The position numbers and the translations under genes were made by a program. Below, one piece after another: positions 20,201-55,007 of a DNA stretch of 64,000 bases (positions are counted from its first letter, which is position 1; the number at the start of each line of letters is the position of its first letter). Origin of the DNA: Bispira polyomma (Eukaryota); contig OZ287751.1 of the NCBI GenBank assembly GCA_965649765.1, positions 63,612,001 to 63,676,000 of the forward strand, written 5' to 3'. The notes under the pieces are model-generated. The model did not search any database. It worked only from the letters and a program-made list of their open reading frames with translations, and was not told where the DNA came from.

Positions 20201-23200
20201 GATGTTACTAAGGCCCCAGAATGCCCCGTCAGAAAGCTGGGTGATGTTGTTTCTCTTTAGTTTCAAGGTAGACAGCTTCTCAAGGCCACTAAAGGTCAAG
20301 CCAGCAATGACTTCTAGTTTGTTTCTGTACAAATCACTGAAAAAAAAAAACAAATAAATATATTATACATATTTATATGTATAAATAATTTGCAACTCAC
20401 TGCATAATGAAACCACTGGGTTATCTTTTCAAGAAATAAATTAATTTATTTTACAAAAACATGAATATAAACCAATCATATTGGGGTTTTTTCATTCACA
20501 AACAAAAACATTAATTAGTGATTAACTTCTTCCAAAAACACACTTTATTTACGGAAACACGATACGTTCAGATAGAAGTCAATACGGGGACCAATTAGTG
20601 ACAATTTTTCTCTCTCTATATTTTGATATGGTGTTCATATTTTTCTCAGGAGCCAAAGGTCTCCCAGTCTTGAAAACTACCCTGGTAAAATAAACCACCC
20701 ATATATATTTATTCTTTTTCATTCAAACTGCAACCGGAAAATTGCCTGTGACCCCCAGATCAGTGTAAGATGACTACAAACATATACTAGGCACTGAAAA
20801 CTCCTGATATCTTATCCAGCAATCTACAAACGTTTGCCCTCATTAGCAAAGGGGGTAAAATAACAAGTGTTTTGGAGATGACAAACATGATAAAGAACTA
20901 GAAAGTCCAGGACACCTGTACAATGTATAAGGAATTAGACCTGGACAGAGATATTCTGCAGCACCACTTAAAACAAGGCCTATCTGCACATACATGTATA
21001 GTCATTCATATTGTGACCAAGGTGATGAAGTTTTTCAAGTGTACCAACCAGATACATCTGGGGTTATATAAGGTATTTCTACATATAAATAAAAAAGATG
21101 CAACTATTAGGCAAGAACTATGTGCTGCAAGGTTTTCAGTTCAAATAGCAATCGAGACATCACAAGAACGCAAGAACCTTGCTAATTCCAAATTACCAAT
21201 GCAAGTATAACAAACATATTTTGATACAACAACTTTGATCTATCATCAGCTTAGTATTTATGGAACTTTTGTGTGCATCAGCAAAAAGTTTTTGTTGAAG
21301 TTCTGTTTTTATTTCAGTTTAAAAATAATTTTGAGATATGTAATTCCTGTTAACATAAATTCAAATAATGATTAATCAAGCACATAGTGAAGAATATATA
21401 CTAGGATTGGAGTTTCTGTCAACAGAATTTCAAATTTTATTAGATTGGAATTTTCTGTCCGGACGCTTTACGTGCACCAAGAAATTTAACAGTTTGGTCT
21501 AACTTTAAAAATAGCTCTACCAGGGTTTTTCTGATACACTTTAATAGTGCAAAACCTGGTAGTTTATTGGCAGATAAATCATATTTTATGGCTTTACTTT
21601 CTAAAGTGCCAACAAAAACACCACCATAACAGGGGAAATGGGGGTTGAACTTGTGTGAGAGATTCTCTGTACTGATCTAGTACTACTCAAAGGAAAGAGA
21701 TCTTGCATAGTTTATATGTTTTGTTTAGACGTTCCAACACAAACTTTACGGTCAGACAGAAAGGAATCTAAAGACAATTTTGAAATGTGTGTGTACATGT
21801 TAAGCAGAGACCCAACAACAAGAAAATGAACCAGGTTTTTTTTTCTGAGATCATGTAAAATAAGACTGTACCATCTATATGGTCAACTATATATATATTG
21901 GCAGAGTCCACCACGCAGGGAAAGAAGAGGGTTTTAAAAGCCAAAGTTTGAGTATTATCTTTAGAGTCAGTGTTATTGGTTTGAGGACACAACACCTGTC
22001 CCCATGTGAGATTTATTGTTTTCTACCTGGTATTGAAATTCATCAAGCCATATAAAGCAAGATGTTTATCAAGTTATCTATCATGTTAGGGACTCTTATC
22101 AGATGACAAGGACAAATTGGAGGTCTGTATAGAACATAATAAAGGATCACTAAAAAAATTCGCTACCAATTTGCCAACTCTTACAAAACCACTATAGTTT
22201 TATATCAATGAAAGTCATAGATCAATCATGCACTTTTGTGACCCAATTAGGTGGATTTCAACATGTAGTATTGGAAAAAAATAAATTTCACAGTTTTAAT
22301 TTTTTTTGAACATCTCTATACCCTTAGCAAGCGTGGTGACTATTTATACTTAAGGGCAAATTTTAGCCTCTTTACTGCCTTTATCAGTGAGAGATGTAGC
22401 ATATTCTCGACCTGTATTCTATCATAACTCATTTCATGCTTGACTGCTTTGAAATCTTCCTTTAAAATCTGAGGCCACTTGGTGTAATGTGTTTCTAAAC
22501 ACAGACCAGTTTCAGAGCAATTATTGAAATACAATTTTGCATGTTGCTACAAGTCAATCTACCAATTTGGGGGAAGTCAAGGTTGTATTTAGTTTTTAGG
22601 GCTTGTGCAGATTTCTTAAAAAAATATTTAGGGTTTAATTAAAAGAAGCAACTTTATAATCGTTTCTATCAGAAATATTTCGGCAGGGCTGAGGTGACTT
22701 ATAACTCTTTTATAAAATTTCCTAGGGTTAATGTGGAAATACAGTAGAGCCTCTGTTATCTGAACATGTTCGCAGAGCAACATTTTGTTTGGACAAGAGA
22801 AGGTTTATAAAATAGAAGGGACAATTCTGTACAAAACAATAGGAAAAACCTAAATTTGGGAGAGTGCAAATAAGTTTATAAAATGGAATATTCAGATAAT
22901 GGAAGTTCAGATGATAGAGGTACTACATTTGTGCTGAAGAAGGAAATTTTACAACTGTTTCTCAAACAGAAATTTTGGCAGGACTGGGGGGTGGGGGGGT
23001 GGGGGGGGTGTATTTAAAATAACTGATTTAAAATGTTCCTTGGTTAACTTGGAAGTGAAATGAGTACCGGTACTAAAACACTAGCCATAATAAAGAGAAT
23101 TTAAAATGGGTCCACAACAAATCAAGTCAAATCCGTCCCTGGGACAATTGATTTTTTTTACTGCGTTAATAACCAGCCAGACCTCTTTATTAATCCATTA

Positions 23201-26200
23201 ATGCAATCATTATGCGGTGCCAGAAACTAACAGCCACAGAACACTGACCATTTAAAGCAGTAGAAAGCAGTTTCATTTCACCAGATACAGTGAATTTGTT
23301 TTATATATTGGAACATAACTGCCAGATATATCCCAGTTTATGGAGTTTTTAGGGAATGTTGTGCAAAAAGAAAGATCCCAGTCCACCTAATAACTAGTGA
23401 ACAAAAGCAATTCACACGTCTTAATGAGAGACATTTACTCTAATATAAAACTTCGTCATCAAAAAGGGGGTGGGAGGAGTGCTGGGACTTGTGTAATGTA
23501 CAGTAATATCTAATTCAGGCCGGTGTGTTTTTTATGGTCAATAATGCTTGCATCGCATGCTGTAAGGCCATGAAATGAAATGTTTCCTTTCTCTTTACTG
23601 CAATGCACTGGGGAGAGAAAGATTGTGATGTAAATGGCATGAACAAAAACATCATTGATCATGATGTACTGTAATGGCAATGATGTTAAAGCCTTCTTCT
23701 TGTGTGTAGGTTCATATGTATGGGGATAGAAACTATCCTCATTTAGTTAGTTCTTCATTTTATCAAAATGCCTTCACCATTTCAATCAGAACAATAAGAC
23801 AAACAATTTTATAACCTTACAAAAGTAAAGGAAAAGTGAGGGTTTTTTTTTTTGTGTACTTGCTGTGCCACAAGCCGCCTACATGGAAACATTCCACTGT
23901 TTTGATGACGATCGATTTTATAACCGCAAGCTGCTGTGCACATGGAAACATCCACTTAGCCAGATTCTTAACATACAAGGTAGTCCCAATAATATCTGCA
24001 TTATCGGTCATACCAGGACCATTAACACATGTAAAGCAAATGTATATTGAACAATGCTTTTTTTATACAACATATGATACTCGAGAAGAAACGACAAGGC
24101 AATTTGCTTACTTCTTGGTAATAGATGTGTTATTTATACTTTATTCACCCGAGTGATGATCCTCTTATTACTTCTACACATTAATAACATATATTATATA
24201 TACACCTGAAAACTTACATATAATACACAAGGAGTTTTTAAATGTTTGAAACTTGACAACTGACAAGTGTTTACTGTAATTTTGTCACACATTTTAAAAT
24301 CATAGGTAGTAAGTACAAAGACGTTATGGCCCCAAAAAATCGTTCACGAGTTTAAAAACTACTTTTCATGGTAGTTACACCTGTATTGTCCAGCTTTAAT
24401 ACATGCAATTTTCATTCTGTATCACAGTCGCACAGAGACATGTTAATTATGCCAATTTACTTTAAACAGAAGTTAAGAATGACAAGATTCCACCTTACAC
24501 CCCCTCTCCCCATCTCAGTCAATATAGTGACAGGCAGTTTTCTTTAATAATATTTCTATATAGTGAACGACACAACACATAAAAACACACCCTAGATATC
24601 AGTGGAAAGTAATTATAGGTGAGGCCTATCTGCGTTTTAAAAAGGGAGTAATTATTTTGATTGTACAGGGTGATACAACCTTTTCAAGTCGGCCCGACTA
24701 CCACTGAGCGACGTACAATACAGTGGCACCAGGACACTGAGGAATAGTAGTCTGCTTACACACACAAAGTGTTTTAGAGTCAAACCTCAATATTTCTACT
24801 CTCTATGAAATAATAAGGAAACGTCACAATTCACGTCTGTCTTTAATGAAAGGTTGAATGAGGATTCAGGAGTTTTACTACCCCCCCCCCCCCCCCCCCC
24901 CCAAAAAAAAATAACAAATAGTATTTAAATAAATTAAAAAAAAAAAAAAAAAAAAATAATAATTCAAGAATGTGGACCATAGATGTCATTAATTATACAT
25001 TTATAAAATAGTTCACAAAGAGTTTTCTCTAGAAAAATAAATCATTTCCTTAACTGTTTACAAAATGCATGTCCTGAATTGATATCATTTTGTTGTTGTA
25101 ACATTCCGTGTTTATTCCCCATTACCAAATCGTCAACATTTAAAATAATGACTGGGTCTTGTGTATTGAATGCCAGTCAGAAAGGAAGAAGAAATCGAGT
25201 GAGGAGGGGGTAGAAACACCTGTCACCTTCACCTGTTTACATGTCACCTTTCTAAAATTCTTTTTTGCTCCAAAATACTATATGAACACCAAGTAGGTTA
25301 AGGAATCTAAAATTCGCCGATGTATCTGAAATTTGCTACCTAGAAAATGTTCTGTTTTTGCTAGAATTGTGGGTAATAATTGCTGAAATAAAGATTTTTG
25401 TGACAATTTTGCCTGAACTTACCTGAATTCCATTTTTTTTTTTGCTTTTTATTGGCTAAAATTTTAGGGGTAGCAAATTCCAGATACAGCGGCGAATTTT
25501 AGATTCCTTACTCTAACAGAATACACCCAGTGAGAGATGGGGATTATAATCAGCTTGGTCTCCCAATTGACATTTCAGATGCGTCTCCACCCGTTTGTCA
25601 ATACAAAACAGCCCACATAGAACTCTTAAAGGTATAAGTTAGAACACGATAATAACTAACTCTACTCCCCCCATATTTTGTAGTCAAATACAAACTTACC
25701 ACTGTGGTTATAATAATACTATTCAATAATTAGAGTTATACAAGATACAATTCAAGCAAAATAAATATTATCTAGTAAAACGCCACATGTAACAATTTAC
25801 ATTTTGCAATTAGAACATTATAGCAATTAACTAATACGTCCACAAAAGTACACTTTTTTAACTCTTACCATCATAGTTTATAATCTAATTCTCTCGCTTC
25901 AGGCAAACCTAATTTTCCCAATATCAATGACAAATTTACTACTTCAGTTTTTGTTTTGCTATCGCCTTAGGCAGTCCAAAGCTGTAACATACCTGTATAG
26001 AACAGAGGTTTAGAAATGGGCCATGTGTACTACCAATGTAATCTAATCTAATCTTTATAGCACTTAATCTCTATACTAGCGGATTCCAAGGCGCATTAGA
26101 CAGGAAAATCATTCTCGTAATCATATAGCCATTGGACGTACAGGGAGGGGGGTGTCATGACCAGAAATGGTAAGGAGTCCAAGGTGGAAAAACCTTGCTT

Positions 26201-32200: not shown

Positions 32201-35200
32201 GGCTATACCTATAACTTCCCTTAACTTCAGCTTCCTTTCCAAACCTTCTACAATCGGCCGTGCGAGGCGGAAGTTTTAGGCATGGTTTTTCAGGCGGTAT
32301 ATTTTACCCAGATGGAACAGCCAATTTAATAGGCGGAAAGACCAGTTACAATATCTTCTGGTAGCGCCTACCATATTCAGCAATATGTGAACGGAGCATA
32401 ACATTGAGACCTTTGCAAAGGCAGAGACAGTGAGGGAATGAGTCGTCCCTTGGGGTGTCTTTTGAACAGAGAGGAGCTTTTTGTATACTGTATACTACCT
32501 ATAATAGTATACAAAAGCTTAGGGAAGCAAAGTGTGAAGCGTTTCTCTTATAAAAGCCCACAGTTGTCAAGAGAAATAAGGCATAGAAAGATTTTAATTG
32601 GAATTTCTTCAATTTGCAGTGCCTGCTATCATCTATTCATACATTGATATGTATCACTGATAGGTGAAAGAAACCACACTTTCTGAAGGAAATCTTTTTT
32701 TTTTATTATTTTTTTCTGGCCTATAAACCAAAGTTTTCTCACAAGTCACAAACAGGTTTTTTTTATAGATACAGAAGACTAATGCATCAATATTGAAGGA
32801 AGGAAAAAAAATCTACTTTTGGCAAATGCTTTCGTTTGGCAAATTGACTGTTAATTTATGTGATGTGATTCAATAGCCTAAAAAGTTGAACAGTAAAAGG
32901 TCACCTTTAAGAACTTGGATCAGCTATAATACTCTTATAATTAAATGGGGTCATATAAAATTCCCCATTGAATAGATTAAAGAATTTAAATACTTTTAAG
33001 CTGTTTTCCACAGCTATTGAATAATTTCAGTAAATAAAACTATATTGTAATGTAGTTTTTTCTCCCAAGGAGTGTTTCAGCTTCTTTACTTTAATGGTTC
33101 AAAAACTACCAAACCAAGTCAAAACATCATTTTCCTAATCTAATAAACATACACATTTGTTTACCCACATGTGCATGTTTGCACAAAAATCTTCTAAAGG
33201 CCAAATGTACTCCATGCACTTTTAGAGCCAAGAAAAAAACAAAAAAACATCCACTATACACTTTGTGAAAAGGAGACTAAAGTCAAACTTATACCTTACC
33301 TACAGAACTTGTAAAAGAAAGCTCAATTATTTACAAAAATACACCCAAAAAACTATATAATAACTTTGCTAATGTGGAAAGAATATACATAGACTAATGG
33401 GTACAATAGATACTTTAACAGTAAGGAACATGGGAAAACAAGGTCAACTTTTCAACTGTGACCTTAAATTTTGAACACAAAAGGCCCAGTGCGAACACTG
33501 AGCTTGTGATTCTGTTGTGTACTTCACTCAGTAAGTGGTCACAGCTGAGCAAAGTATACCCACAAATGTCACCACCACCACAGGTGAACAATAACCCAGC
33601 ACACACTAACAAACACAGCCAACACACAACACCGAGTGGGCAGATTATCTCACCAAGTATTGATATACTGGATTACTGCCAGGCTATTATATATATACAG
33701 GGATGTGTGTAGTACTTGTCTTCTACAGTATTCATCCTAATGGCTGCCAGCAGGTTGGTGTATCCTGAAGGCTTAAACTGCTAGCTATATGGCTCCTTCT
33801 ACTGATCAAATGTGTACATTGTAAACTGTTTATATAACTGTTTAGTTTTGTATACCTTAGAAATGAAGCAACCCCAAGTTTTAGACAACACACAGTCTCC
33901 CAGTTGAACCTAGATCACTTAAAACACTTTCTGGTATAATTTTGTTGTTGCGCTTTAGAAGATACCTCCTATCAATAAGGCGCATTAAAAATACGAAACA
34001 TCATATTTAAATACTAAAAGGTAAGGCTACTAGGCTTTGTAGATAGGTTAGTGTCTTGCATATAGGATTGTGTTTCTAATTTTTTATGGATCTTACAAGG
34101 ACCCTTTTATGTTCCTCAAGTTTTGCCAAACAATTTTTGGGTTTTAGCAGACCAAGTTCCTCTTTTAAGGGAGATATTGCACCTGCAAAGATTTAAATTG
34201 AATTCTATCAACCTAAATACAAAATTACTGAGTATCGATGTGTTTGAAAGATTCTAAGCATATAAAACACTAACTGTAACGACCATCTATTGTAAAAAAT
34301 GCAATCTGCTAACACATCAGTCCATATATCAAAAGAGATTTTAATAGAACGCAAGGCCTACACGTTACAGTAGACTGTGAACATTATATTTAGATCACTC
34401 ATTAAGTACAGCTAAAATGACTTTCCAAATAAATAAATAAATATTTGTAAAACTTTTAAACATTTAATCATGGTGGATATTTTTTTCCAAATATGGCATC
34501 AATTGCTGGAGAGGGTGGTAATTAAATATTATACTGTCCAATACATGGCATTAAATCTTACTTATAAGGGGCATACACCACTGCTCAAAGATCCAAAAAT
34601 ATTTACTCGTCCTGTCTCACTGGACCTGGTGCTCCTGACTATTACTTGTGGTTAATATTAAGGGCTGGCCATGTTCGTGTCATTAAGAGTAAGGTCTTTC
34701 TAATATTTACTCTTCAGTCTGTCACAAACTAGGGCTTCACTTAAAACGTTTATATATAAAGTAAGGAATCTAAAATTCGCCACTGCATCTGAAATTCTCC
34801 ATCAGTAAAATTTAAGTTAAATCACTTAAAACTGGCGAAAAATAACTGGAATTCAGGTAACTAAGGCACAATAGTCACAAAAATCTCAATTTCAGCAAAT
34901 ATTACCCACAATTCTACCCAAAACACAATATTTTGTAGGCGATGAATTTCAAATACAGTGGCGAATTTTAGATTCCTTACTCTACATATAGCACTTTATA
35001 ATCATCACCAACAAAAGACAGACATGACAACACCCCCCACCCCTCCTCATCCCCTGTTATAAAGGTGGATTTGTTATACTTAAGTTCAATGTTAGTAAAG
35101 TAATATTTAAGGAGGACCTCCTATACATCACTGGGCATGTTCTCGCAGTATGGCTACAATTCTTACACAGAGTCAAATCCCTTTAGGTGGAACTCTGTTA

Positions 35201-38200: not shown

Positions 38201-41200
38201 ATAAATAAACAATAAAAGTATCAAATAAATACTCACAAAGTTTTTAGCTGTCGAAAGTGTGTGAATAACTCTGAATTAAGTAGTCTAATTTTATTTCCAC
38301 TCAAATTCCTGAAACACAAACAATTTATTTTGAAAAGATCCAAATTCAATAAGACAAAATGTAGTGTTACCGTGCCAATATATAAATGACAAACAATATG
38401 GAAATGTTCTTTCGTTGTGTTGTTTATTACATAATGACATATATAAGAGAATATGCTAAATCTATGAGCTAGTGTCACAAAATAATTGGAGAAATGTTTA
38501 AAAAAAAGTCAGTTTTTACTGTATCTCAGGAGCTCATAAGAAATGAAACCACCTTAACTGGTATTAAATTAGTGGGTAAATCATTTGTGTGCCACGACAT
38601 TGATATCAAAGGCAAAATTAACTCAATATTGGCCGATATCGAGACATAGTAAGAAACTGGAAATCTGCCTAAATGAAACAGGAAGTGTGAATTGCTAAAT
38701 TGTTTACAAGTAACAACAGGCTTAAACTATCCAGTGTATTAAACTGGATTAAAAATACCATTAAATTTTTTGTGGAGGTGTTGTCCCAGGGGAAAATATG
38801 TATCATTTACGACATTGATATGTTTGTGTTACTACACATTGACACCCAAGAGCCCAAACAATAAATATTGTTAATATAGAGTTGTAGACAAACAATTTAC
38901 CCAAAATCTTATCCTCTTAAGACAAACCAATTCTAAAATTAACAAGTACAATATATTTTCTACAATTAAACAAATTTTAGACTACACAAAATCAGATCTA
39001 AAAGTGTTTAACTTTTACTAAAGCAGTTCTCCCAATTTTACCTTCTCAAATAAATTACAATTTTAAAAGAGTGAAACTCTCTCAGGTTTATATACCATCA
39101 AGAAATGGTACATAGAAAGAAAACAATTGACGCAAGATTTGGTAAAGGGGGGAAACAAGCCATGAACTGTGAGAAGAAAAACTAAAGAACATCATAGAAA
39201 ACACAGTGAGGCTGTTCTAATGACTTGGGGGCAAGGCAGCTGAGTAAAGCTTCTAAGTAGTAAAGCCCTGCATATAAAGTGTATGTACACAGTGGGTCTA
39301 CTAGAAACCCATGCAGTAGTTTTTATTATTATTACCATGGAAACATTTGCCTTTGAGCTGAACTAATATTTTCATAAACCATTTGTAATTGTGAGAAGTT
39401 CACAGTTTAACTTCCCCAGTGTACATTATGTACAGCTTAAATAGAATTGCAGATTTGTAGCACAAGGTCAACTTTACTCAGATACAACTGAAATGGGATT
39501 TTAAAAAGAATCAATCTTAGTATTTCATCTATTTCAAGTTATCTATTACAGAAACCTCTGGATTGTTTTTTAAGATTCTTTAACAAGATGTACTTTTTCT
39601 GGAAAAAAAAACCCCGTTTAGTTCTGAAGTTACTACATATATGAAAACTACCTGTACAATATCTCACTGAAAGTGGGATTAATTATGTAATGATGGCTTC
39701 CATTGGAATGGAAAAGAAATTATCAACATTTATAAATACGTTTACGTAGCTCTGCGGAAAAAAATTACTGTCGATAATGACCTATTTACAGAAAATTACC
39801 TAAACATCTGTATATATATACTCTAGTGGGTAAATTGTTTATTGATATTGGCAATATTTATTGTTTGGGCTTTTGCATGCCAATATCGATGTATAATACA
39901 AACACATCGATATCAAAAATGACACATATTACACCTTGGGACAATGTTTATTCAAACATTTTAATAATATTTCATGGTTAAAACCTTTTAAATAATGAAT
40001 TTTAACCATTTTATATCCATTTTTACTTGTAAACATATTTAGCGGTTCTCACTTCCGGTTTCATTCTGGCAGGTGTTTTTTTTTCTGGAATACATTCCAG
40101 TTCCTTCACATTTTTTTCCTACCTCCTGATATCAGCCAATATTGAATTAATTTTATTTTCGATATCAATCTCCAGCAGCCCAAACGATTTACCCACTAAT
40201 ATACTCCTCAACTAACCTAAGATACACAACAGTTAATACTTAATATCACAGTTATAAGCTGGAGCATTCTGATTGTTTACATTTCCTTTTGAATAAACAC
40301 CATAACTTCCACAAGTGTATTTGCTTAAGCAAAAAGACTTGTACATTCAAATTTTCATTGAATAATCAAATTATGAACGACCCTCAGATTCACATTAAGC
40401 ATGCATTTACAAAATGCATTGATGTCTATCTGTATGCACGAACAAATTTTTGTAGAGGTTAGTATATTTTGCTCAACACACTCAATAAACTTTTACATGA
40501 ACATTTGATGACCCAATCATATTATCAATATTTATTATCAATTATGCACTGATTAGTTTTCATTAATGGAAAACTTTGTCTTGTGATAATTCCTATACTG
40601 GTCGTGCACTGAATTTCACAAGTTTTGATATGTTTGACAATATACATTATACTTTTCTGCAATGGACTTCATACAGCAAGAGTTTCTGTACATCATAACA
40701 GGGGCATAGACTCGTTGGAAACTGAAGGTGGCCAGCAGGGCCAGTATCTTTTACACTTTAGTGGCCCGTATAAATATTTAGTGGCCCTTAAAATTTTCTA
40801 ATTCTGATACGCCATTACGGTACCCCTGATAAAAAAATCAGGACTATTTAGAGTAAAGAATCTAAAATTGGCCACTGTATCTGAAATTGGCCACCTCTAA
40901 AAGTTAAGCTAAATCAATAAAAACTGGTGAAATATAACTGGAATGTGCAGGGGCAAAAATTCGCAGTCGCCAACTCGCCAGTGGCGACTTTATTCCGATA
41001 AGGATGAGTAAAACGTTTTTCGGGGTCGCCCGGCTGGCAATTTAGATTTAGAGGCGAAAAGACGAAAGCTGTTCTCGAAGAAGCTTGCTTACTTCCGGTT
41101 TTCGCAATCGCTAAACGAAACCACTACACAAATAAAAAACGCATTTTAATTGATTCAATGCATGAGCGATATACAGGATTCCAAGTCCACGTGTTCTGCA

Positions 41201-44200
41201 ACGTTTTAAAGCAATAAAATACCTTTTATCGACTTTATTTTATAACATTTCCTTCAATCGCAGATTCTGCCATTTGTAAACAAAACAACCAAATATCTCA
41301 CTCTGCGCAGCTTCTAAAATATTAAACTACAGTGACTGTTTGTCTGCTACATTTTCATTGGTTCAAAATCGAGGAGTTGTCCTGTGACAACCAATCAACG
41401 ACTAGCTTTCTTCTACCAAATTCCAAGCGCCACCAAGCGAGTGGATTTGTTACCGCATAAAAAACAGTGTTTTATTTATTCAAACCCTAGCAACCATAAA
41501 GGGGAAGTTTTCGTTCTTTGTATTGCACATCAGATGCATTTATCAGACAGCATATATGGTGTGATCTACTTCCAATATACTTTTTGAAGAATATAAGCAA
41601 TTTTTATTTGATGAATTTTTACATTGGCCAAATTGCTTACTTTTGTCCCCCATTTGAAATTACATGCCCCCAGTTTTTCAGTGACAGTGGGGGAGTGCCC
41701 CAACATTTTGAAATTCCTAGAATAGACACTGCATATTATATATGGACTTATGGTGAATTTTATGGAAAGATACTCGAGTAAGGATTAAGGAATCTAAAAT
41801 TGGCCACTGTATCTGAAATTAGCCATCTAGAAAATGTTGTGTTTTTGGTAATATTGTGGGTAATATTTGCTAAAATCAAGATTTTTGTGACTATTTAGTC
41901 TTACTTAACCACGTTCCAGTTATATTTCACCAGTTTTTATTGATTTAGCTTAACTTTTAGAGGTGGCCAATTTCAGGTACAGTGGCCAATTTTAGATTCT
42001 TTACTCTAAATAGTCCTGATTTTTTTATCAGGGGTACCGTAATGGCGTATCAGAATTAGAAAATTTTAAGGGCCACTAAATATTTATACGGGCCACTAAA
42101 GTGTAAAAGATACTGGCCCTGCTGGCCACCTTCAGTTTCCAACGTGTCTATGCCCCTGAATGTGGTTAAGTAAGACTAAATAGTCACAAAAATTTTGATT
42201 TTAGCAAATATTACCCACAATATTACCAAAAATACAACATTTTCTAGATGGCCAATTTCAGATACAGTGGCCAATTTTAGATTCCTTAATCCTTACTCGA
42301 GTATCTTTCCATAAAATTCACCATAAGTCCATATATAATATGCAGTGTCCATTCTAGGAATTTCAAAATTTTGGGGCACTCCCCCACTGTCACTGAAAAA
42401 CTGGGAAAATGTAATTTCAAATGGGGGACAGAAGTAAGCAATTTAGCCAATGTAAAAATTCATCAAATAAAAATTGCTTATATTCTTCAAAAAGTATATT
42501 GGAAGTAGATCACACCATATATGCTGTCTGATAAATGCATCTAATGTGCAATACAAAGAACGAAAACTTCCCCTTTAAGGTTGCTAGGGTTTGAATAAAT
42601 TATACACTGTTTTTTATGTGGTAACAAATCCACTCGCTAGGTGGCGCTTGGAATTTGGTAGAAGAAAGCTAGTCGTTGATTGGTTGTCACAGGACAACTC
42701 CTCGATTTTGAACCAATGAAAATGTAGCAGACAAACAGTCATTGTAGTTTAATATTTTAGAAGCTGCGCAGAGTGAGATATTTGGTTGTTTTGTTTACAA
42801 ATGGCAGAATCCGCGATTGAAGGAAATGTTATAAAATAAAGCCGATAAAAGGTATTTTATTGCTTTAAAACGTTGCAGAACACGTGGACTTGGAATCCTG
42901 TATATCGCTCATGCATTGAAGCAATTAAAATGCGTTTTTTATTTGTGTAGTGGTTTCGTTTAGCGATCGCGAAAACCGGAAGTAAGCAAACTTCTTCGAG
43001 AACAGCTTTCGTCTTTTCGCCTCTAAATCTAAATCGCCAGCCGGGCGACCCCGATAAACATTTTACTCGTCCTTATCGGAATAAAGTCGCCACTGGCGAG
43101 TTGGCGACTGCGAATTTTCGCCCCTGTCATAATATCTTATTTTAATTTCATAAAATCAGTTTATAAATTGGTGAACCCAAGTAGTGTTGCAATCGATTTT
43201 TAAAATATATAACCAGTTTTTGGAAGAAAATTCAGGGCCAAAATCCAGTTTAACTGCTCTGGGGAATTTTATGTAAAAGTTTAACTAAATTGCAGATTTT
43301 TCTGCTTGTTACATATTTTTCGGTCAAGTGGCTCTCGCTTTTAAGTTCTGATAGACTGCTCAAGTATTCAAAGTGAACATATTGACTTGCTGACTTCTAC
43401 ATTTGTTTGGCTGACCACTACTGCTGTATATTATGTCACAATTTAATATACTTACAGTTCATCTAAGTTTGTTAACCCTTGAAAGGTAGAAGGCAAGACA
43501 TCAATAATCCTATTTGAAGATAAATCCCTGTAACAACATAAAACACAGTTAAAATTCTATTTCCACAGAACAAAAGTCTGTATCAATACTCAAGTGCGTG
43601 TAAAGGGTTGCAGGCCACTAGATTTAGTGTTATACGCATATGACTCTAGAAACTAAGGATGGAACCGAGGGCTCGACACTCCCTGTATGAGCCATATTTT
43701 GTGAGGAATCGAGTCCATTTCCCCCACTCGACTACTCACTATTATAGCAGATTATTGCTCACACAATATAAAAGATACATAAAATATTAACATTTGTACA
43801 TTTCGGCCTGGTTACTCACACAATACATAAAATATTACCATTTGCACATTTCGGCCTTGTTACATAAAAAAATATGTCAGATTTGGTAAAATAACCCACA
43901 TTTCATTCCATATTCCTAAATATGTTGTAAAATATCAGACATTTTTACACAATAACATTGCTACGGGAAACGGCTATATTTGTTTCTGGCATTTACATAC
44001 AACTAATCTAATGATATTTTTAAGGACGGAACGAGTAGTCAGTTAATCCCCGACGGAGCGGTTCGGCTTGTGGCTCAAGTTACAAATGAGAAGCCGATTA
44101 CTCGACAAGTTTACTTCTGACACACATACAACTCATTAAACCGTATATAAACATCAAATTATATATAATTAGACATCAAAACTCAATATTTTCACTAATA

Positions 44201-45568
44201 TTCACCCCTTTCTTTAGTATTTACAATGTATATATTTTGTACGGTTGGAAGGAAGTAAACAAAAACTGCTTCGTTTTGGTTTGGGTTAAAATATGTTTGC
44301 GAGTACTCAGCACCGAATCGAGTATCACCTAGCAAGTAACCGGGGCCCATTTTCTGGCTTTGTTAACTTAGGCTTTGTACAATCATTGTTTTTCATAAAA
44401 TCACCATTACTACTGTTATACATCAATGTAACATCAATGACACAATTATGTATTAATCATGTCAGACTGGTCAGGCAATGTCTAAAAAATATATTTTTAC
44501 AACGTCACAGGCTGAGAGGGCCCCCCTTGAAGCTGTGTCTGTGGCACAGGCCGCTTCTAGTATTTTATGAATACTGAATTATACACTGAAACTAAGTGCA
44601 AGTTTTATTACTAACAATACACCTAGGAAACAACTCTGTCCTTCGCAGTGCTACATCAGTAAATTGCTCATTTGAATATTGTTAAATAAAGCAATGACTG
44701 GCCAGTATGTACATCTGTTAATAAAATGACATCTTCGGCAGTTTCATTTAGAAGAAAGCAATTAACGGAACTCCCCAGAAATAGCAATAAAACTTGTCTT
44801 TTGTAAGTGCATGAATTTCATGCAAGTAATTAATGGAACTTTGCGGAAGTCTCCGAAAATAGCAATTATTAGAGCAAAAATGTGTACATACTACGTGCAT
44901 ATTCGTCATTTGTAAATGTTGATTAAATTACCAGAGTCGTTAAATTACATTATATTACCGTATTATCATATATCAGTTAATATTTGCTTTAATAAATCGA
45001 ATTTGATAATAAATATTGTTAATTTCTTGCAATTTTGTTTTATATGTGGCAATATAAATTTAAATATGGTAGCGAGTTGCGGTGGTAGGGACTCGCACAT
45101 AATTGTTTTTCATGGGTCTTGTTTTTATATAGTGTACAGTCACATTACTATTATATTTATAGAATGAATTACCCATCGAATACCTAATATAAGTTTTTCA
45201 ATAATAGCTGTATGTGTACATCTGTAGACGATATCGTTCACAGATAGAGTCGTGTAAGTTTTTTATGTACAGGTGTATCACTAGCCCGATACTGAAACAT
45301 GCTAAAGTATAACACTTCCACTGACAGCTGCAAAACAGTACACACAACTGAGCGATAATAAGAGATAAGTGTCCACTTACAAGATTTTGACCCAAGTCGG
45401 TAGATCTGTTGGTACAGTGTCAAGGTTCCTTTTGCTACAGTCAACCATATGACCGAGACAGGAACAAACTGATGGACACAGAAAGTTTTCACTCCAAGCA
45501 GTACTCCAGAAATACGCAAAAATAATAACAAAAGAAACCTTCAATTTACAAAACATTATATCCGCCAT
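6765..45568 (-). CDS. LRIG: LRIG-family leucine-rich repeat and Ig-domain receptor, 5' part (coding exons 1-9; continues beyond left edge)
   Basis: Manually spliced exons 45568-45381, 43527-43456, 38308-38237, 37109-37038, 31120-30983, 26493-26350, 20336-20193, 11063-10992 and 6836-6765 join in one frame with AG/GT boundaries. The product is signal peptide + LRRNT (CPSVCSCLGHMVDCSKRNL...P..LP.WV) + LxxLxLxxN repeats. It includes LRIG-typical segments recalled from memory: GLTF.GL..L..LKL.RNNI..L.DGAFWGLS, GLYGL, WEFC. The Ig, TM and tail exons are not in the window. Confidence 0.9.
7007..7224 (+). mobile_element. Same MITE family, copy 4
   Basis: TAGAGTAAAGAATTCTAAAATTCGTCAC...TTTTAGATTCCTTATTCTA. 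Confidence 0.8.
7427..7597. repeat. 57-bp tandem repeat, 3 near-identical copies
   Basis: ATGGATTGGTTGGAAGCAATCAACACTG..AAACTGAGGGGTGTCAGATTTATTGTC at 7427, 7484 and 7541. Confidence 0.95.
10614..10975. mobile_element. hAT-type MITE (362 bp)
   Basis: Imperfect TIRs TAGGGTTGGGACAGG / CCTGTTCACAAGCCTA; 8-bp TSD ATGTTAAT (10606-10613) vs ATGTGAAT (10976-10983). Confidence 0.7.
10992..11063 (-). CDS. LRIG: LRIG exon 8 (72 nt)
   Basis: cag|A...AT|gtgagt; ELDNNSLTQLKKAGLYGLESLKSM. Confidence 0.9.
11281..11413 (-). mobile_element. tRNA-derived SINE 5' portion
   Basis: Minus strand GGAGCCACGGTGGCCTAGTGGTTAG (A box) ... GAGTTCAAATCC (B box). Confidence 0.65.
12639..12863. repeat. 30-bp tandem repeat (~7.5 copies)
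   Basis: AAATCGCC(T/C)AAATCTTG(G/A)GAGGTAGCT(CT/TG)A units. Confidence 0.92.
12864..13620. repeat. ~90-bp tandem repeat array (interrupted)
   Basis: GATATAGGTTAGAGAC(C)AAAAAAC..ATAATTTTGACTTGCATGAATCACTACAAAACAC...GATTTTGTCCAA units. Confidence 0.9.
15026..15550. mobile_element. ~520-bp TIR element (MITE-like)
   Basis: Terminal CCGGTTCCGCTCT ... AGAGCGGAACCTG; CpG-rich interior. Confidence 0.5.
17690..18120. repeat. Degenerate CA-rich minisatellite
   Basis: Recurring ACAGCCATACAGGCACT(C)AGACACAC / CACACCCATAC motifs. Confidence 0.75.
19380..19580 (+). mobile_element. Old L2-clade LINE 3' fragment
   Basis: YLFKLVYPP* followed by a 3' UTR (TTCCCTCCCTGTACACCCC...TCTATTGGTT...CACTTTA.AGATG) that recurs inverted at ~62830-62960. 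Confidence 0.55.
20193..20336 (-). CDS. LRIG: LRIG exon 7 (144 nt, two LRRs)
   Basis: poly-T tract, then cag|T...TT|gtaagt; DLYRNKLEVIAGLTFSGLEKLSTLKLKRNNITQLSDGAFWGLSNINTL. Confidence 0.93.
22741..22927. mobile_element. Tc1/pogo(Tigger)-like MITE
   Basis: TA|CAGTAGAGCCTCTGTTATCTGAAC...GTTCAGATGATAGAGGTACTAC; same family as 26691-26874. Confidence 0.6.
25294..25515 (+). mobile_element. Same 'TAGAGTAAGG' MITE family, copy 5
   Basis: TAGGTTAAGGAATCTAAAATTCGCCGATG...CGGCGAATTTTAGATTCCTTACTCTA. Confidence 0.8.
26039..26290 (-). mobile_element. L2-clade LINE 3' fragment with (GATTA)n tail
   Basis: Minus strand encodes PMLWNDLLHDIPTFPLLTSFRNKLKMYLLSKVFPP (compare the C-terminus of the 47346-49988 ORF), then GCGCCTTGGAATCCGC...GATTAAGTGCTATAAAGATTAGATTAGATTA; a shorter relative lies at ~15860-15985. 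Confidence 0.8.
26350..26493 (-). CDS. LRIG: LRIG exon 6 (144 nt, two LRRs)
   Basis: cag|A...CT|gtaagt; YLNNNRITKLAKGTLDNLPNLEMLRLGKNQIGTLPAKVFKKLSQLKLL (inside ORF 26346..26561). Confidence 0.92.
26691..26874. mobile_element. Tc1/pogo(Tigger)-like MITE
   Basis: CAGTAGAACCTTTATTATC ... GATAATAGAGGTTCTACTG TIRs. Confidence 0.7.
27908..28075 (-). mobile_element. 3' half of the SINE family seen at 6441
   Basis: Reverse complement of AGTATGCTTC...TGTAAAC.GTAAAGTCGG.TGAGACCTCAAT.GAGGTG..ATCAGACT. Confidence 0.75.
30983..31120 (-). CDS. LRIG: LRIG exon 5 (138 nt, two LRRs)
   Basis: cag|A...CT|gtaagt; SHNKLRSLSKTLLRRTPLLRQLDVGFNKLTELTNGTFPFLPNLHQL. Confidence 0.9.
34757..34984 (-). mobile_element. 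Same 'TAGAGTAAGG' MITE family, copy 6 (opposite orientation)
   Basis: Same TIRs with the internal core inverted. Confidence 0.8.
35540..35688. mobile_element. ~150-bp MITE (PIF/Harbinger-like TIR)
   Basis: GGGCCGTATTCACAAACATTCTT ... AAGAATCTTTGCAAACACCAGCCC; related element at ~57817-57931. Confidence 0.5.
37038..37109 (-). CDS. LRIG: LRIG exon 4 (72 nt)
   Basis: tag|A...CT|gtaagt; KLMYNELDELPTFPVNYSLTHLLL. Confidence 0.87.
38237..38308 (-). CDS. LRIG: LRIG exon 3 (72 nt, one LRR)
   Basis: cag|G...TT|gtgagt; NLSGNKIRLLNSELFTHFRQLKTL. Confidence 0.87.
38570..38906 (-). mobile_element. hAT-type MITE, diverged inverted copy of 39824-40198
   Basis: TAGTGGGTAAAT start and ATTTACCCA end; interior homologous in inverse orientation to the 39824 copy. 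Confidence 0.7.
39824..40198 (+). mobile_element. hAT-type MITE (375 bp)
   Basis: TIR TAGTGGGTAAAT...ATTTACCCACTA with a perfect 8-bp TSD ATATACTC on both sides. Confidence 0.85.
40699..43126. mobile_element. Outer copy of a 1211-bp non-autonomous TIR element, split by an inverted copy of itself
   Basis: Ends CAGGGGC...GCCCCTG; 6-bp TSD TCATAA (40693-40698, 43127-43132); 2428 - 1211 - 6 = 1211 bp. Confidence 0.92.
40948..42158. mobile_element. Inner, inverted 1211-bp copy of the same element
   Basis: Ends CAGGGGC...GCCCCTG; 6-bp TSD AATGTG (40942-40947, 42159-42164); carries an intact nested TAGAGTAAGG-family MITE at 41774-42008. Confidence 0.92.
43456..43527 (-). CDS. LRIG: LRIG exon 2 (72 nt, one LRR)
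   Basis: cag|G...CT|gtaagt; DLSSNRIIDVLPSTFQGLTNLDEL. Confidence 0.9.
45381..45568 (-). CDS. LRIG: LRIG coding exon 1 (signal peptide + LRRNT)
   Basis: MADIMFCKLKVSFVIIFAYFWSTAWSENFLCPSVCSCLGHMVDCSKRNLDTVPTDLPTWVKIL; ATG in strong context GCCATCATGG; donor TT|gtaagt. Confidence 0.9.
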
Positions 45569-46843: not shown

Positions 46844-47234
46844 TTAACATTTACAAACTATGGCAAATTTTAAGAAGGAAATCGTTGTTGGCTTTAAACA
46901 GAATCAATTTCACCAATTTAATATAATTTGAAACTTTCCATATGCAAACTGTGGATATTGTACAATATGACCATTGTTTTAGAAAAGTTATAAATTTGTT
47001 TAAACTTTAACATTAGTCACACTTCCCTTAATCTAATAAATAGATCATTTAATTATATATGGTTAACCATTACATATGCTACATGTCTACAGTTGCCCTA
47101 TAAAAAGTAATTACCCTATAATGTGTAGATCAATAATAAAAAATCAAAGACATCAGCCATATTCGTATATTTTGTCGATTTTAATATGCACTCTTTAGTT
47201 TTTTTACCATTGTCACATTTTTAAATTCCTTAAA

Positions 47235-49988
47235 ATCACAGAAACACACATTAGGAGTTCTGATACTCCATCATTCCTGTCTGAACTTACCCCAGCTGAT
47301 TTTCAGCTATTCCATACCCCTCGTGTAGGTAAACAGGGTGGGGGGGTGGGATTTTTTATTAAGAAAAACTATGAATGTCGATTAGTTGCTACACCAAGCT
47401 TTACATCTTTCGAACTCATCCTTGTCTCTGCTCACTGGAAAAACCAGTGTTTAAATTTTGCCACAGTTTATCGGCCTCCTGGCTCAAATCTCACTACATT
47501 TTTCGATGAATTCATGTCCTTTGTTGGGTTTACTTGCTCGGTACCCTCTCCTACTGTATTCTGTGGGGATTTCAATATTCACATAGACATCGCATCTGGA
47601 AATAGTAATCGGTTTTCCACAGTTTTGGAATCTTGCAATCTTACCCAACACATAAACTTCCCTACCCATATTCATGGGCATACACTAGACTGCTTGCTAA
47701 CTCCGACTGATTTCAATGGTATCAGAAACATAAAAAACATTGGTTGCATCAGTGATCATTTTTCGATATCCTGTGAAATTGATGCTCCCTCCCCACCATC
47801 TTTTGATGTCACACAAATCACTTTTCGGCAATTTCAAAAAATCAATATGTCTGACCTTAGAAGAGAGTTGGCAGATACGGCCTTCGTCAAGTCTCCTGCT
47901 GATAATGCCACTGACCTATACACACAGTACTGCGCTGACCTGCAGTCTCTTATAGAACGCCATGCGCCATGTAAATCAAAGACATTGAAGAAGCCGGCAC
48001 CTGAGTGGATCACCAGTAATTATCGTGAAATGAAGATGCTGCGCAGACAAGCCAAACGAACATGGCGCCGAAACAAAACTACTACAAATAGATCTAGACT
48101 ACGCCAATGGATCACCCGGTGCAACAACACTATAAATGACTCAAAACGTGCCTACTATGCTAAGATGATATCACAAAGCGAGGGTGACCCGAAGAAACTT
48201 TGGCAAAAACTAAATAGCACCCTCCACCGTAAAAAACAGACTATACTACCAGAAAATTCCAATAGCAAATCACTGGCAAACATTTTTAGTACTTTTTTCA
48301 CTGATAAAATTACCAGAATCCGTGACGGTTTTACATTAGCTGCCCCAAATGCCCCTTTACCAACATCTCCACCAACCGTCTTCAACTGTTTCTCCACAGT
48401 AACTGTTGATGAAGTCAGGAAAATTATACTGGCATCACCCGTAAAATCTTGCTTGTTAGATCCGTGGCCCACATTCCTTGTTAAAGAATGTATTGACATT
48501 TTATTGCCCTCAATCACAAAACTTATCAACCTCTCGTTGATAAATGGCGTCTTTCCAGATGACTTTAAAAAGGCTATTGTCACTCCTCTAATAAAAAAAC
48601 CTTCTCTTCCAAAGGCTGACTTGAAAAATTACCGTCCTGTCTCAGGCCTTTGCTACATCTCTAAGTTGGTAGAACGCGCGGTTGCCTTACAGATCAAACA
48701 ACATGTTGACGTCAGCAATCTGTCCAATAAGTATCAGTCAGCGTACAAAAGTGGTCATTCTACTGAGACTGCACTTCTCTGCATCAAAAATGATGTTCAT
48801 ACATCTTTATCCAAAGGTATGCCTACTGCCTTAGTACTGCTGGATCTGTCAGCAGCCTTTGATACTATTGATCACAAAGTTCTTCTTGAATGCCTATCGT
48901 CCTGGTTCGGTATCAGCGGTATGGCGCTTAAGTGGTTCACGGCATATTTATCTGATAGATTCCAATCAGTCAAAATTGGCAATATCTTATCCGACCCAAC
49001 ATGGTTAAAATTTGGTGTTCCCCAAGGTTCCGTCCTGGGTCCCATTTTGTTTTCCATGTACACCACCCCACTCAGCAAGATTATTGCTGCATACAAAAAC
49101 ATAAACTTTCACTTCTATGCTGATGATACCCAACTGTACATCCACCTTACACCTGACTCTGCCCAGGTAGCTTTCACTTCCTTACAGAACTGCCATGTTG
49201 ATGTACAACACTGGATGGCAGCAAATAAACTCAAGCTGAACCCTGAGAAGACTGAGTTTATTTTGTTTGGCTCCAAGTCGCAACGGGAAAAATTGTCCAG
49301 CTGTTTTCCACTTGACATTCTTGGCAGTAGGTTTTTTCCAGCTGAAAAAGTACGAAACCTGGGCGTGGTGTTCGACTCTGAATTTTCCTTCTCGAACCAT
49401 GTCGCATCGGTGTGTAGATCATGTTTTGTTGGCCTCCGTGATTTCAGGCGGATTCGACGCTATCTTTCCAAATCCACTGCAGTCACTGTTGCCAATGCTT
49501 TGGTCAGCAGCAGGCTTGATTACTGCAACTCTCTGTTCCGTTCCTTATCTCGTAGTGATCTCAGACGCCTTCAGAATATCCAACACTCATTGGCACGTAT
49601 TGTGACCAAAACATCTAAATTTTCCCACATTACTCCTGTACTCAAGTCACTGCACTGGCTCCCAATAAAATATCGTGTTGCTTTCAAAACAGCAACAATA
49701 ATATATAAATTTCTAAATTCTGGATCACCCACTTATTTTAGCCCCCATCTATCCAAATATACATGCTCAGTCAGGACTAGGCGCAGTAACCCTGATAAAT
49801 TATACCTTAACATTCCCACCTTCGACCCTCGCATCCACAAATCCAAAGTTCAGTTCAATCACTGCCTAGCTCATGATGGCCCCCTCATTTGGAACAGCCT
49901 ACCTGATCATGTTCGCCTGGCTCAAACTTTCTCCTCTTTCAGGAGTAAGCTGAAGGCCTATCTTTTTGAACAGGCTTTTCCACCTTAG
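47235..49988 (+). CDS. LINE ORF2: apurinic-like endonuclease + reverse transcriptase (N-terminally truncated, no genuine start codon)
   Basis: APE motifs ITET, GGGV, YRPP, GDFNIH, THIHGHTLD, SDH; RT motifs LLDLSAAFDTIDH, GVPQGSVLGP, YADD, NLGV; L2-type C-terminus SRLDYCNSL, LHWLPI. The frame is open 37 codons upstream of the track's GTG start at 47346. Confidence 0.93.
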   Translation: MTETHIRSSDTPSFLSELTPADFQLFHTPRVGKQGGGVGFFIKKNYECRLVATPSFTSFELILVSAHWKNQCLNFATVYRPPGSNLTTFFDEFMSFVGFTCSVPSPTVFCGDFNIHIDIASGNSNRFSTVLESCNLTQHINFPTHIHGHTLDCLLTPTDFNGIRNIKNIGCISDHFSISCEIDAPSPPSFDVTQITFRQFQKINMSDLRRELADTAFVKSPADNATDLYTQYCADLQSLIERHAPCKSKTLKKPAPEWITSNYREMKMLRRQAKRTWRRNKTTTNRSRLRQWITRCNNTINDSKRAYYAKMISQSEGDPKKLWQKLNSTLHRKKQTILPENSNSKSLANIFSTFFTDKITRIRDGFTLAAPNAPLPTSPPTVFNCFSTVTVDEVRKIILASPVKSCLLDPWPTFLVKECIDILLPSITKLINLSLINGVFPDDFKKAIVTPLIKKPSLPKADLKNYRPVSGLCYISKLVERAVALQIKQHVDVSNLSNKYQSAYKSGHSTETALLCIKNDVHTSLSKGMPTALVLLDLSAAFDTIDHKVLLECLSSWFGISGMALKWFTAYLSDRFQSVKIGNILSDPTWLKFGVPQGSVLGPILFSMYTTPLSKIIAAYKNINFHFYADDTQLYIHLTPDSAQVAFTSLQNCHVDVQHWMAANKLKLNPEKTEFILFGSKSQREKLSSCFPLDILGSRFFPAEKVRNLGVVFDSEFSFSNHVASVCRSCFVGLRDFRRIRRYLSKSTAVTVANALVSSRLDYCNSLFRSLSRSDLRRLQNIQHSLARIVTKTSKFSHITPVLKSLHWLPIKYRVAFKTATIIYKFLNSGSPTYFSPHLSKYTCSVRTRRSNPDKLYLNIPTFDPRIHKSKVQFNHCLAHDGPLIWNSLPDHVRLAQTFSSFRSKLKAYLFEQAFPP

Positions 49989-52189: not shown

Positions 52190-53610
52190 TTTCCACAGAG
52201 AGGACTGGCCAAATTTATATAGTGTAATCATAATGACTTCATGCATGGTGGTGGATAAAGATATAATAAGATTTGTGAGCAAGTCTAGTGTCCCGCAAAA
52301 AGTCTCGAGCATTACTCTGTATAAATATTTAACACTGTCTTATTTTTATGTTGTAAAATGAACAAGAAGTATTTTATTATTGCTTACTATCCATACATAT
52401 CATTTAATTGATAAATAACCATTTTTTAGGGCCTCAAAACTACCTTTTTTGAGGCATTATTACATTATTTTGAGACATTTTTAACATACATTTTTGATTT
52501 CAAAGCAATCACTCAAATAGTTCATCTGAGACTAAAAAATAAATATACTTCAATATTTATTTTGAATACAAATAAAAAGTGCACAAATACTTGGTCTGGT
52601 CAAAATATTTAAACTATTTGTGTATGTTTCCATTTTACAGACTTGATCTCAGCATTAAATCTCAACTGAGTCACTTTTGTGATTACCGAAACTTGAGATA
52701 GCTGACACAGTCGATAAATAATGTACCCATTCAATACATGTTCTTTTCTTAAGTTTCTTTCACACAAGCTTCCAAATATTTTACTACTGCGAAATGGATA
52801 CATTTGTTTCTAATATAATATACGTCGTGAAATCTATGTAAACATTATTGAAAGTTCTTAGGACGTATGGGAAACAGATTAACTTAATTGAGACTGGGAG
52901 CCAGATAAACTTGAGACTGGTAGCCAGATTACCTTGAGACTATGAATCTCAAAATCTGAGACCATCTTTAGTCTCAGACTCAAGACTTATTCGTGAATAC
53001 AGACTTCCGGAGGTGAATTTTTTAAAGATTTGTTTATTATATTGTCTTTCCATTATATTCTACTTAGTTTTTTTCTTTTTGGGTGGGTCCTGTATCTCGT
53101 GCACAATAAGGACTTAAGCAGGAATTTCAAATACATACCCATTGCATTAAAAAACCAAAACAACATTCAAACACACAACTTACTAGTTGCCCTATGTTCA
53201 GACTATGAAGTTGTATTTGTTCTAATCCGGTCTCAGATTGGGACTAACCCTCCTGTCTGCTTCAACCTGAATTACCACAAAATCCTCCCATGATATCTAG
53301 CAAATTCTCCCTGGGGGTATATACTAGGAAATCCACCCCAGCTGGGAGGCCCTGCCAAGAACAGATCCCGGATTCTCAAACCCAGACAACATCCTCATAA
53401 CTGGGACCCTATCTGCATGTCACCATAATGCACGGTGAACTAGAACCTGGTATATTATCATAATGTACTCATTCACTGTAAATATCTGCAACAAGCGACA
53501 CATACCAGTATAAGGACTATGTTATATTGTTGATCCCACCAAGGGGTATGTAGTTTCATCAGCTGTCTATTGGTTTGAATCAATTTTGCAAACTTTGTTG
53601 AGGGCCATGA

Positions 53611-55007
53611 CATAGGACAAGGAAGAAACCAGTGCAATAAGGCAGGGAAGAAACCAGTGCAATATGGCAGGGAAGAAACCAGTGCAATAAGGCAGGGAAG
53701 AAGCCAGTGCAATAAGGCAGGGAAGAAACCAGTGCAATAAGGCAGGGAAGAAGCCAGTGCAATAAGGCAGGGAAGAAACCAGTGCAATAAGGCAGGGAAG
53801 AAGCCAGTGCAATAAGGCAGGGAAGAAACCAGTGCAATAGGGCAAGGAAGAAACCCATGCAATAAGGAAAGGAAGAAACCAGTGTTATAGGTAAAGGAAG
53901 AAACCAGTGCAATAGGGAATGGGAGAAACCAGTGCAATAGGGAAAGGGCGAAAACCAGTGCAATAGGTAAAGAAAGAAACCAGTGCAATAGGTAAAGAAA
54001 GAAACTAGTGCAATAGGTAAAGGAAGAAACCAGTGCAATAGGGCAGGGAAGCAACCAGTGCAATAGGACAAGGAAGAAACCAGTGCAATAAGGAAAGGAA
54101 GAAACCAGTGCAAAAGGGAAAGGTAGAAACCAATGCAATAGGTACAGGAAGACACTAGTGCAATAGGTAAAGAAAGAAACCAGTGCAATAGGTAAAGGAA
54201 GAAACCAGTGCAATAGGTAAAGGAAGAAACCAGTGCAATAGGTAAAGGAAGAAACCAGTGCAAAAGGGAAGCAGAAACCAATGCGATAGGGCAAGGAAGA
54301 AACCAGTGCAATAGGTAAAGAAAGAAACCAGTGCAATAGGTAAAGGAAGAAACCAGTGCAATAGGGCAGGGAAGAAACCAGTGCAATAGGGCAAGGAAGA
54401 ATCAGTGCAATAAGGAAAGGAAGAAACCAGTGCAATAGGTAAAGGAAGAAACCAGTGCAAAAGGGAAAGGCAGAAACCAATGCAATAGGGCAAGGAAGAA
54501 ACCAGTGCAATAGGTAAAGACAGAAACCAGTGCAATAGGTAAAGGAAGAAACCAGTCCAACAGGTAAAGGAAGAAACCAGTGCAATAGGGCAGGGAAGAA
54601 ACCAGTGCAATAGGGCAAGAAAGAAACCAGTGCAAAAAAGGAAAGAAAGAAACCAGTGCAATAGAAAAAGGGAGAAACCAGTGCAATAGCTAAAGGAAGA
54701 AACCAGTGCAATAGGTAAAGGAAGAAGCCAGTGCAAAATGTAAAGGAGGAAACCAGTGCAATAGGTAAAGGAAGAAACCAGTGCAATAGGGAAAGGAAGA
54801 AACAAATGCAATTGGGAAAGGGAGAAACCAGTGCAATAGGGCAAGGGGAAAACCAGTGCAATAGGGCAAGGGAGAAACCAATGCAATAGGGCAAGAAAGA
54901 AACCAGTGCAATATGACAAGAAAAAAACCAGTGCAATAAGGCAAGGGAGAAACCAGTGCAATAGGACAAGGGAGAAACCAATGCAATAGGGCAAGAGAGA
55001 AACCAAT
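53611..55007. repeat. 25-bp minisatellite, ~56 copies
   Basis: Unit GG(T/C)A(A/G)(A/G)GGAAGAAACCAGTGCAATA; strongly purine-rich on the + strand. Confidence 0.97.

Follow-up and report, generated by a model that had tools for sequence, protein, structure and literature searches.

A non-autonomous hAT element with 6-bp target-site duplications, nested inverted in a probable sister copy in Bispira polyomma

In maize double Ds, one Ds element sits inverted within another copy, so that 5′ and 3′ ends are directly oriented. Hermes is an Ac-group element with 8-bp target-site duplications (TSDs). Nested Ds elements act as chromosome breakers according to PMC3260210, which gives double Ds as absent from B73. 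Directly oriented pairs of Ac/Ds ends give rise to sister-chromatid transposition, which brings breakage, inverted duplications, and deletions of flanking DNA; inverted Ds pairs are described as well (PMC3239180). Hermes and Mos1 are reported to insert into themselves (PMC3030943). Here we describe a natural nested hAT element in a 64-kb stretch of Bispira polyomma DNA (GCA_965649765.1, contig OZ287751.1, positions 63,612,001 to 63,676,000), which we call the window; feature coordinates are window positions unless a locus label (L followed by a number) is given. At 40693–43132, a non-autonomous 1211-bp hAT element lies inverted inside what is very probably its sister copy, a twin insertion having likely reinserted next door.

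The outer element (40699–43126) is bordered on each side by TCATAA (40693–40698 and 43127–43132, plus strand) and the inner element (40948–42158, plus strand) by AATGTG (40942–40947 and 42159–42164, plus strand). When TSD lengths of 2–12 bp were compared at both levels, 6 was the sole matching length. The inner element measures 1211 bp, and so does the outer element once the insert and one TSD are subtracted. An earlier note on this DNA, made by a model from the letters and their open frames, had reported this nesting, with balancing lengths and copies a few percent apart, and the exact coordinates bear it out: in opposite orientation the two copies align without gaps and differ at 30 scattered positions (2.5%; 21 transitions and 9 transversions). 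Its remark that the differences are often CpG transitions holds as an enrichment over the expectation from CpG content (p=3e-4), but such changes make up only about a quarter of the total (8/30). The inner element is a complete, non-coding copy (longest open reading frame at most 93 amino acids), and its perfect terminal inverted repeat (TIR) is only 7 bp long (CAGGGGC).

The outer element runs on the minus strand and is divided into a 249-bp right-end piece (40699–40947), which ends with the first copy of the inner TSD and is 99% complementary to 41910–42158, and a 968-bp left-end piece (42159–43126), which is 97% complementary to 40948–41916. All four ends are intact, in the order right (40699), left (40948), right (42158), and left (43126), and form two left/right pairs in direct orientation, spaced 249 and 968 bp. 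With each pair of TSDs undamaged and the exons of the host gene (see below) collinear, nothing has been rearranged at the nested locus. The self-insertion site falls within an older miniature inverted-repeat transposable element (MITE) of ∼225 bp with 52-bp inverted ends, carried as a passenger at element positions 836–1060 (41783–42007 in the inner copy). In the inner copy the uninterrupted target site (41910–41915, minus strand) reads AACGTG, as the earlier note had seen. However, the site is AATGTG in 24 of 29 other loci and has the CG form in none (0/29); judged from these sequences, AACGTG is thus a later change private to the inner copy and not an ancestral CpG.

The nested junctions rest on the assembly. 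We compared independent contigs (three sets from two samples of one study) with 39700–41900, counting a junction as bridged from 31 bases, and none of the pieces listed bridged the inner left junction. Difference-free contigs from the flank ended at 40712 (X1) or 40724 (X2 and X3), 14 and 26 bases into the outer element. Over 42104–42213, positions 42148–42155 were uncovered in all three sets, so that the inner right junction was also unbridged; such a hole in filtered records proves nothing, and these samples may carry an un-nested allele.

The locus resembles maize double Ds in being a non-autonomous hAT element inverted within its own copy, with four intact ends and directly oriented end pairs. 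It differs in its animal host, its 6-bp TSD, its 7-bp TIR, and an off-centre insertion near the right end. The copies here are also 2.5% diverged, breakage is only predicted, and two such structures persist in the assembly. Like Hermes and Mos1 in transgenic insects, which are described as inserting into a second copy of themselves present after replication (PMC3030943), the element appears to have entered its own kind; those events were experimental, whereas the nested pair is a natural germline fossil.

We then asked how closely the inner and outer copies are related. They grouped together with a support of 0.92 in a tree of 31 copies and 0.93 in a tree of 109, in which both belong to a single 9-member subfamily. 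They have in common four derived bases, three of them transversions, that are absent from the other 7 subfamily members (41070, 41182, 41268, and 41416 on the plus strand of the inner copy; 43004, 42892, 42806, and 42658 in the outer copy). Among the 36 pairs of the subfamily, this is the largest number of shared non-majority bases; the next pair shares 3, and the following 1. A 20-nt motif over one of the shared bases occurs only three times in the genome, twice at the nested locus and once in an unrelated copy of 83% identity, and the double element has therefore not been amplified as a unit. As sister copies with four derived bases in common, the two point to the twin of this very locus as the probable donor of the inner copy; this is the simplest reading and agrees with the local hopping that the earlier note had suggested. 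If the donor sat on the sister chromatid, the 2.5% divergence dates the event; a donor allele on the homologue that had already diverged would allow a much younger event.

The genome searched (1.035 Gb in 75 contigs) contains 180 exact matches to the left and 181 to the right of our 24-nt end patterns, against 0 for control patterns, and the overlap of the two lists on C1–C4 gives an estimated family size of ∼324 copies. We compared 109 copies with both ends, about a third of that estimate. Their TSD was exactly 6 bp in 83 and 6 bp with one mismatch in 6 more. The remainder had exact 5-bp (4 copies) or 7-bp (3) TSDs, 7 bp with one mismatch (2), 8 bp with one mismatch (1), or none by the automatic rule (10); some of the 5-bp and “none” cases reflect changes at the boundary. 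Six base pairs is thus the rule for the family, made by a slightly sloppy enzyme, and the tabulation called for by the earlier note found 6 bp dominant but not strictly kept. The possibility, raised there, that other true termini are bordered by 8-bp TSDs was rejected: no short copy (0/109) had an exact 8-bp TSD, and the flanks diverge right up to the CAGGGGC termini.

Family members fall into length classes of about 0.75–0.8, 1.05, 1.09, and 1.21 kb and differ from one another by 0.3–8%. With the nested pair at 2.5%, the recent activity proposed for the family is only partly borne out. The subterminal motifs are asymmetric, of the GTCGCC/GGCGAC type at the left end and GGCCAC at the right, and have a putative binding role; together with the short TIR, this arrangement is as expected of the hAT superfamily. 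Six free copies of the passenger MITE lie in the window (2327–2578, 3227–3482, 5550–5775, 7006–7224, 25293–25518, and 34752–34990); they measure 225–250 bp, are 71–82% identical to the passenger, and often have TA flanking their ends. Another copy of the same subfamily, L039:1621–2898, carries a short internal inverted duplication (positions 186–290), possibly a repair scar.

A coding partner for the short element was found by a protein search with a DUF4371 query, which gave transposase matches 1.4–1.5 kb from two left-end matches. Among PF05699 loci, the best 30 were of the Ac type, and none of 20 further hAT loci had the same ends. Five long copies of 5.1–5.4 kb match the short element at both ends (L136, L137, L139, L140, and L148); the earlier note had proposed looking for long copies with the same TIRs. 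Their first 172 bp are 82–87% and their last 153 bp 88–92% identical to those of the short element (40948–41119 and 42006–42158 in the inner copy, plus strand). The TSD is exactly 6 bp in L137 and L140, 6 bp with one mismatch in L139, and exactly 8 bp in L148; L136 has a damaged right end. The long copies are ∼97–98% alike over their coding part, and L139 and L148 carry stops or a frameshift in the exons examined (the large and the last exon).

Several observations indicate that the partner encodes a ZNF862-like hAT transposase. Its large exon matches Pfam zf-C17orf113 above the cut-off (E 6e-8). The last exon matches Dimer_Tnp_hAT (PF05699) weakly, with 20.7 and 18.9 bits against a cut-off of 21.4 (E 4e-4 and 1e-3), and the related family L141 clears that cut-off with 25.7 bits. 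Many of its 227 homologs have DUF4371 and several Dimer_Tnp_hAT; those that are named are ZNF862-like proteins of bivalves, hemichordates, echinoderms, and fish, at most 50% identical. The long copies contain the motifs DGSTD, CDGASV, HCFAHR, GTRW, and S.VERGF, corresponding to the hAT RNase H-like DD-E core, CxxH, and helical insertion. A structure model built from a 70-sequence alignment (predicted local distance difference test score, pLDDT, 93) retrieved Hermes in all of the top 12 rows with Foldseek (best E 3.5e-6). In a VIA wide search Hermes also came first (Z 9.7, root-mean-square deviation 4.9, 204 residues aligned); integrase cores scored within 1 Z of it but were aligned over only ∼90 residues. 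A sequence-profile search of the PDB with the partner alignment gave nothing significant (best E 0.035).

P elements have a THAP-type P transposase and 7–8-bp TSDs; we rejected this assignment, as the TSD is 6 bp, Pfam shows neither a THAP nor a P-type match in the partner, and its modelled fold is Hermes-like. IS3EU elements share the 6-bp TSD, but the fungal families described in PMC12730594 have TIRs of more than 30 bp ending in TAYGG; they too were rejected, the family here having the 7-bp TIR CAGGGGC and a hAT partner. The 8-bp TSD of canonical hAT elements (Ac, Buster, and Tip) is likewise theirs and not that of this family, with exact 8-bp TSDs in no short copy and in one of five long copies (L148). 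A hAT element with a 6-bp TSD has a published name, hAT6 (Kapitonov and Jurka 2007, as cited in PMC12730594). With 6-bp TSDs and a hAT transposase in its same-ended partner, the short element is a non-autonomous hAT6 by that definition, and the unusual 6-bp hAT lineage of the earlier note is one already named. The likeness is one of definition, the named hAT6 sequences standing outside our tree. PMC12730594 groups hAT5 and hAT6 with Blackjack and other hATs of animals in one lineage, and PMC3942097 lists a hAT6-1 protein among the additions to a tree in which Tip forms the third clade. In the literature searched, with Repbase Reports and most subscription papers outside reach, we found no report of hAT6 biology beyond the definition and none of a natural double hAT in an animal.

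The closest families within the genome, at 40–46% identity over 160–243 columns, have exact 8-bp TSDs (4/4 copies in one family; L141, L145, L151, and L226 in others). The 6-bp spacing seen here may thus have arisen separately from that of the named hAT6. A family of 24% identity has a 5-bp TSD in 3/3 copies and 6 bp in a fourth (L233). Across the related ZNF862-like hAT families (L220–L228, L141–L151, and L233), 5-bp TSDs occur with ends CAGTGCTCCAGA and 8-bp TSDs with ends CAGTGTTC. Single copies deviate from their family, L233 with 6 bp in a 5-bp family and L148 with 8 bp in a 6-bp family.

Local hopping is family-wide. Among 126 elements on C1–C4, 9 adjacent gaps were shorter than 15 kb where 0.59 were expected, a number reached in 0 of 20000 simulations. 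Removal of a 26-bp fragment (L034) left 8 neighbour pairs (p=2e-7), and there was no excess of gaps at 15–100 kb among the same elements. We compared 8 neighbour pairs, 7 from C1–C4 and L033 on C5; the counts leave aside the L034 fragment and the L216 pair, and the L037 fragment pair stands outside the tree. Five of the 8 are related: the window pair, L032 (0.92% apart), L038/L043 (0.28%), L042/L157 (1.3%), and L033, whose kinship is based on a two-base allele nearly private to the pair. The TSDs differ within the window, L038/L043, L042/L157, and L033 pairs. No kinship was found in the other three (L031, L041, and L158/L159).

One of the unrelated pairs, L031:2215–4642 (G000:C3:101.47 Mb), is a second inverted nested pair. 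It too has 6-bp TSDs at both levels (ATTGTG and AATTCT), its insertion lies ∼305 bp inside the right end, and its copies belong to different subfamilies, 6.3% apart. In this pair as in the window pair, the insertion site is within the passenger MITE. Two nested cases were thus seen where 0.06 would be expected by chance for ∼324 copies. No third nested pair was found among the left-end matches listed (67/67 and 100/110), a count that misses copies with a changed end. The MITE was rejected as a general insertion target, none of 105 other copies being located in a free MITE copy.

The remaining close pairs are of several kinds. At L032:735–7496 (G000:C4:95.52 Mb), the ORF2 of a long interspersed nuclear element (LINE) lies in three pieces, parts of them inverted, around two inverted sister copies; neither has its own TSDs, and one near-perfect 6-bp duplication is split between the two elements. 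The split LINE and divided TSD suggest that paired family ends have rearranged DNA at this locus. At L216:1046–5278 (G000:C7:64.26 Mb), two copies 3163 bp apart have the same TSD and flanks and represent a tandem or assembly duplication. The fragment at L034:4020–4045 is a 26-bp match to the left end within the coding region of a retroelement-like sequence, either a fragment or a coincidence. Other hAT families also have close inverted pairs, at L143/L144 (G000:C9:50.13–50.16 Mb), C5:31.74 Mb, and C10:20.05–20.07 Mb; L143 and L144 have identical flanks and thus represent an inverted duplication rather than a hop.

These data can be ordered into a history. It would start from the 5.1–5.4-kb partner, which has the same ends and TSD and encodes the ZNF862-like transposase. 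Through the terminal 172 and 153 bp common to both elements, the partner enzyme would have spread the short element in trans, in several subfamilies. One copy entered the intron of the LRIG-like host gene, duplicating TCATAA, and its lineage gained the four base changes before the copies split, presumably at this place. A twin on the sister chromatid or the homologous chromosome would then have been excised by the family transposase and hopped locally, landing 243–249 bp inside the right end, within the passenger MITE, and leaving four ends intact. By analogy with Ac/Ds, the two directly oriented end pairs would be open to sister-chromatid transposition, and to breakage, whenever transposase is supplied. 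The alternative transposition foreseen in the earlier note is matched by a double-Ds arrangement of the ends, but the intact TSD pairs show that no such breakage has occurred on this haplotype.

We consider it likely that the inner copy came from a reinserted twin, although several findings weigh against this. By raw distance the outer copy is nearer to L005 (2.32%) and L211 (2.42%) than to the inner copy (2.48%). Of the four shared bases, just two are uncommon across the family (5 and 3 of 109 copies); the remaining two also turn up in other subfamilies, in 14 and 11 copies, and one unrelated pair has 3 bases in common. The partner may be a cousin and not the parent of the short element, the ends being only 82–92% alike, and an appearance of sisterhood could also result if the arms had undergone gene conversion long ago. 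Such conversion enters a second explanation, in which an unrelated subfamily member inserted by chance and conversion between the inverted arms later copied a few bases. Long inverted arms can convert, and the four shared bases do lie within 350 bp of one arm; however, private differences are interleaved with them, both copies belong to the same 9-member subfamily of 109, chance nesting is expected only 0.06 times per genome, and L031 has no converted tract. We regard this course of events as very improbable. Still less credible is a misjoining of two haplotype or paralogous copies by the assembler. Inverted repeats assemble poorly, and the inner/outer divergence could be allelic; yet the duplications at both levels are exact and have the family's length of 6 bp, the two copies differ at 30 scattered positions, and the same architecture recurs independently at L031 with other TSDs, joints that an assembler would have no reason to make.

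L031 is itself a point against the reinserted twin, since nesting from non-sister copies requires no local donor. It favours instead homing in trans, in which a family member from elsewhere would be drawn to the resident copy, with transposase bound to the resident subterminal sites as a putative landing pad; the shared bases would then have been inherited from a common donor since lost, or acquired afterwards by conversion. The two nested insertions lie inside the same right end, twice is more often than the chance expectation allows, and 3 non-sister pairs have gaps of less than 15 kb where 0.59 were expected (p=0.02), with no excess at 15–100 kb. As free MITE copies are not hit, the MITE itself is not the target. 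Yet at the window locus the copies are sisters, the non-sister nested case by itself falls short of significance (p about 0.06, rising to 0.21 for a family of double the size), and the null model takes insertion as uniform. As the origin of the window pair, homing is in our view unlikely. A wider form of the idea is that this hAT6 family homes to its own resident copies, with transposase at the right end channelling sister or non-sister elements 240–310 bp inside, inverted, and so repeatedly building double-Ds-like breakers in an animal germline. We hold this to be doubtful, if somewhat less so; it draws on one nested case and on a p of 0.02 under a uniform null. If true, it would provide a self-targeting route to rearrangement hot spots.

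With a reinserted twin as its source, the nested pair is well explained by ingredients that are all known: hAT6, local hopping, and double Ds. The locus offers a clean natural case of a double-Ds-like structure, persisting twice in an animal assembly although selection is believed to act against structures of this kind in maize (PMC3260210). It also makes local hopping countable from fossils, with 8 close pairs against 0.6 expected. The transposase has neighbours of 40–46% identity that make 8-bp and not 6-bp TSDs, and the basis of TSD length is thus testable by comparison; in the same genome, related transposases with staggers of 5, 6, and 8 bp are ready to hand and could reveal what determines the target spacing of hAT elements.

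The nested element is predicted to sit in the first intron of an LRIG-like gene on the minus strand, between exons at 45568–45381 and 38308–38237. A leucine-rich repeat (LRR) exon of this strand (20192–20335) has LRIG1 as its best PDB match (E 9e-28), in agreement with the LRIG assignment made earlier. From reading of the sequence, the predicted first coding exon (45381–45568, minus strand) would encode a signal peptide and LRR N-cap, and the predicted second exon (38237–38308, minus strand), in phase with it, one LRR.

Other repeats were noted in the window. A LINE on the plus strand (47199–49985) has a 929-amino-acid open frame that looks endonuclease/reverse-transcriptase-like by eye, and family copies L035 and L037 contain insertions of related pieces. 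A tandem array of 1.4 kb, with a period of 25 bp and long open frames, lies at 53605–55007, and other arrays at 12611–13643. Several open frames on the minus strand at 60190–62257 look by eye like a DIRS/Ngaro-type gag.

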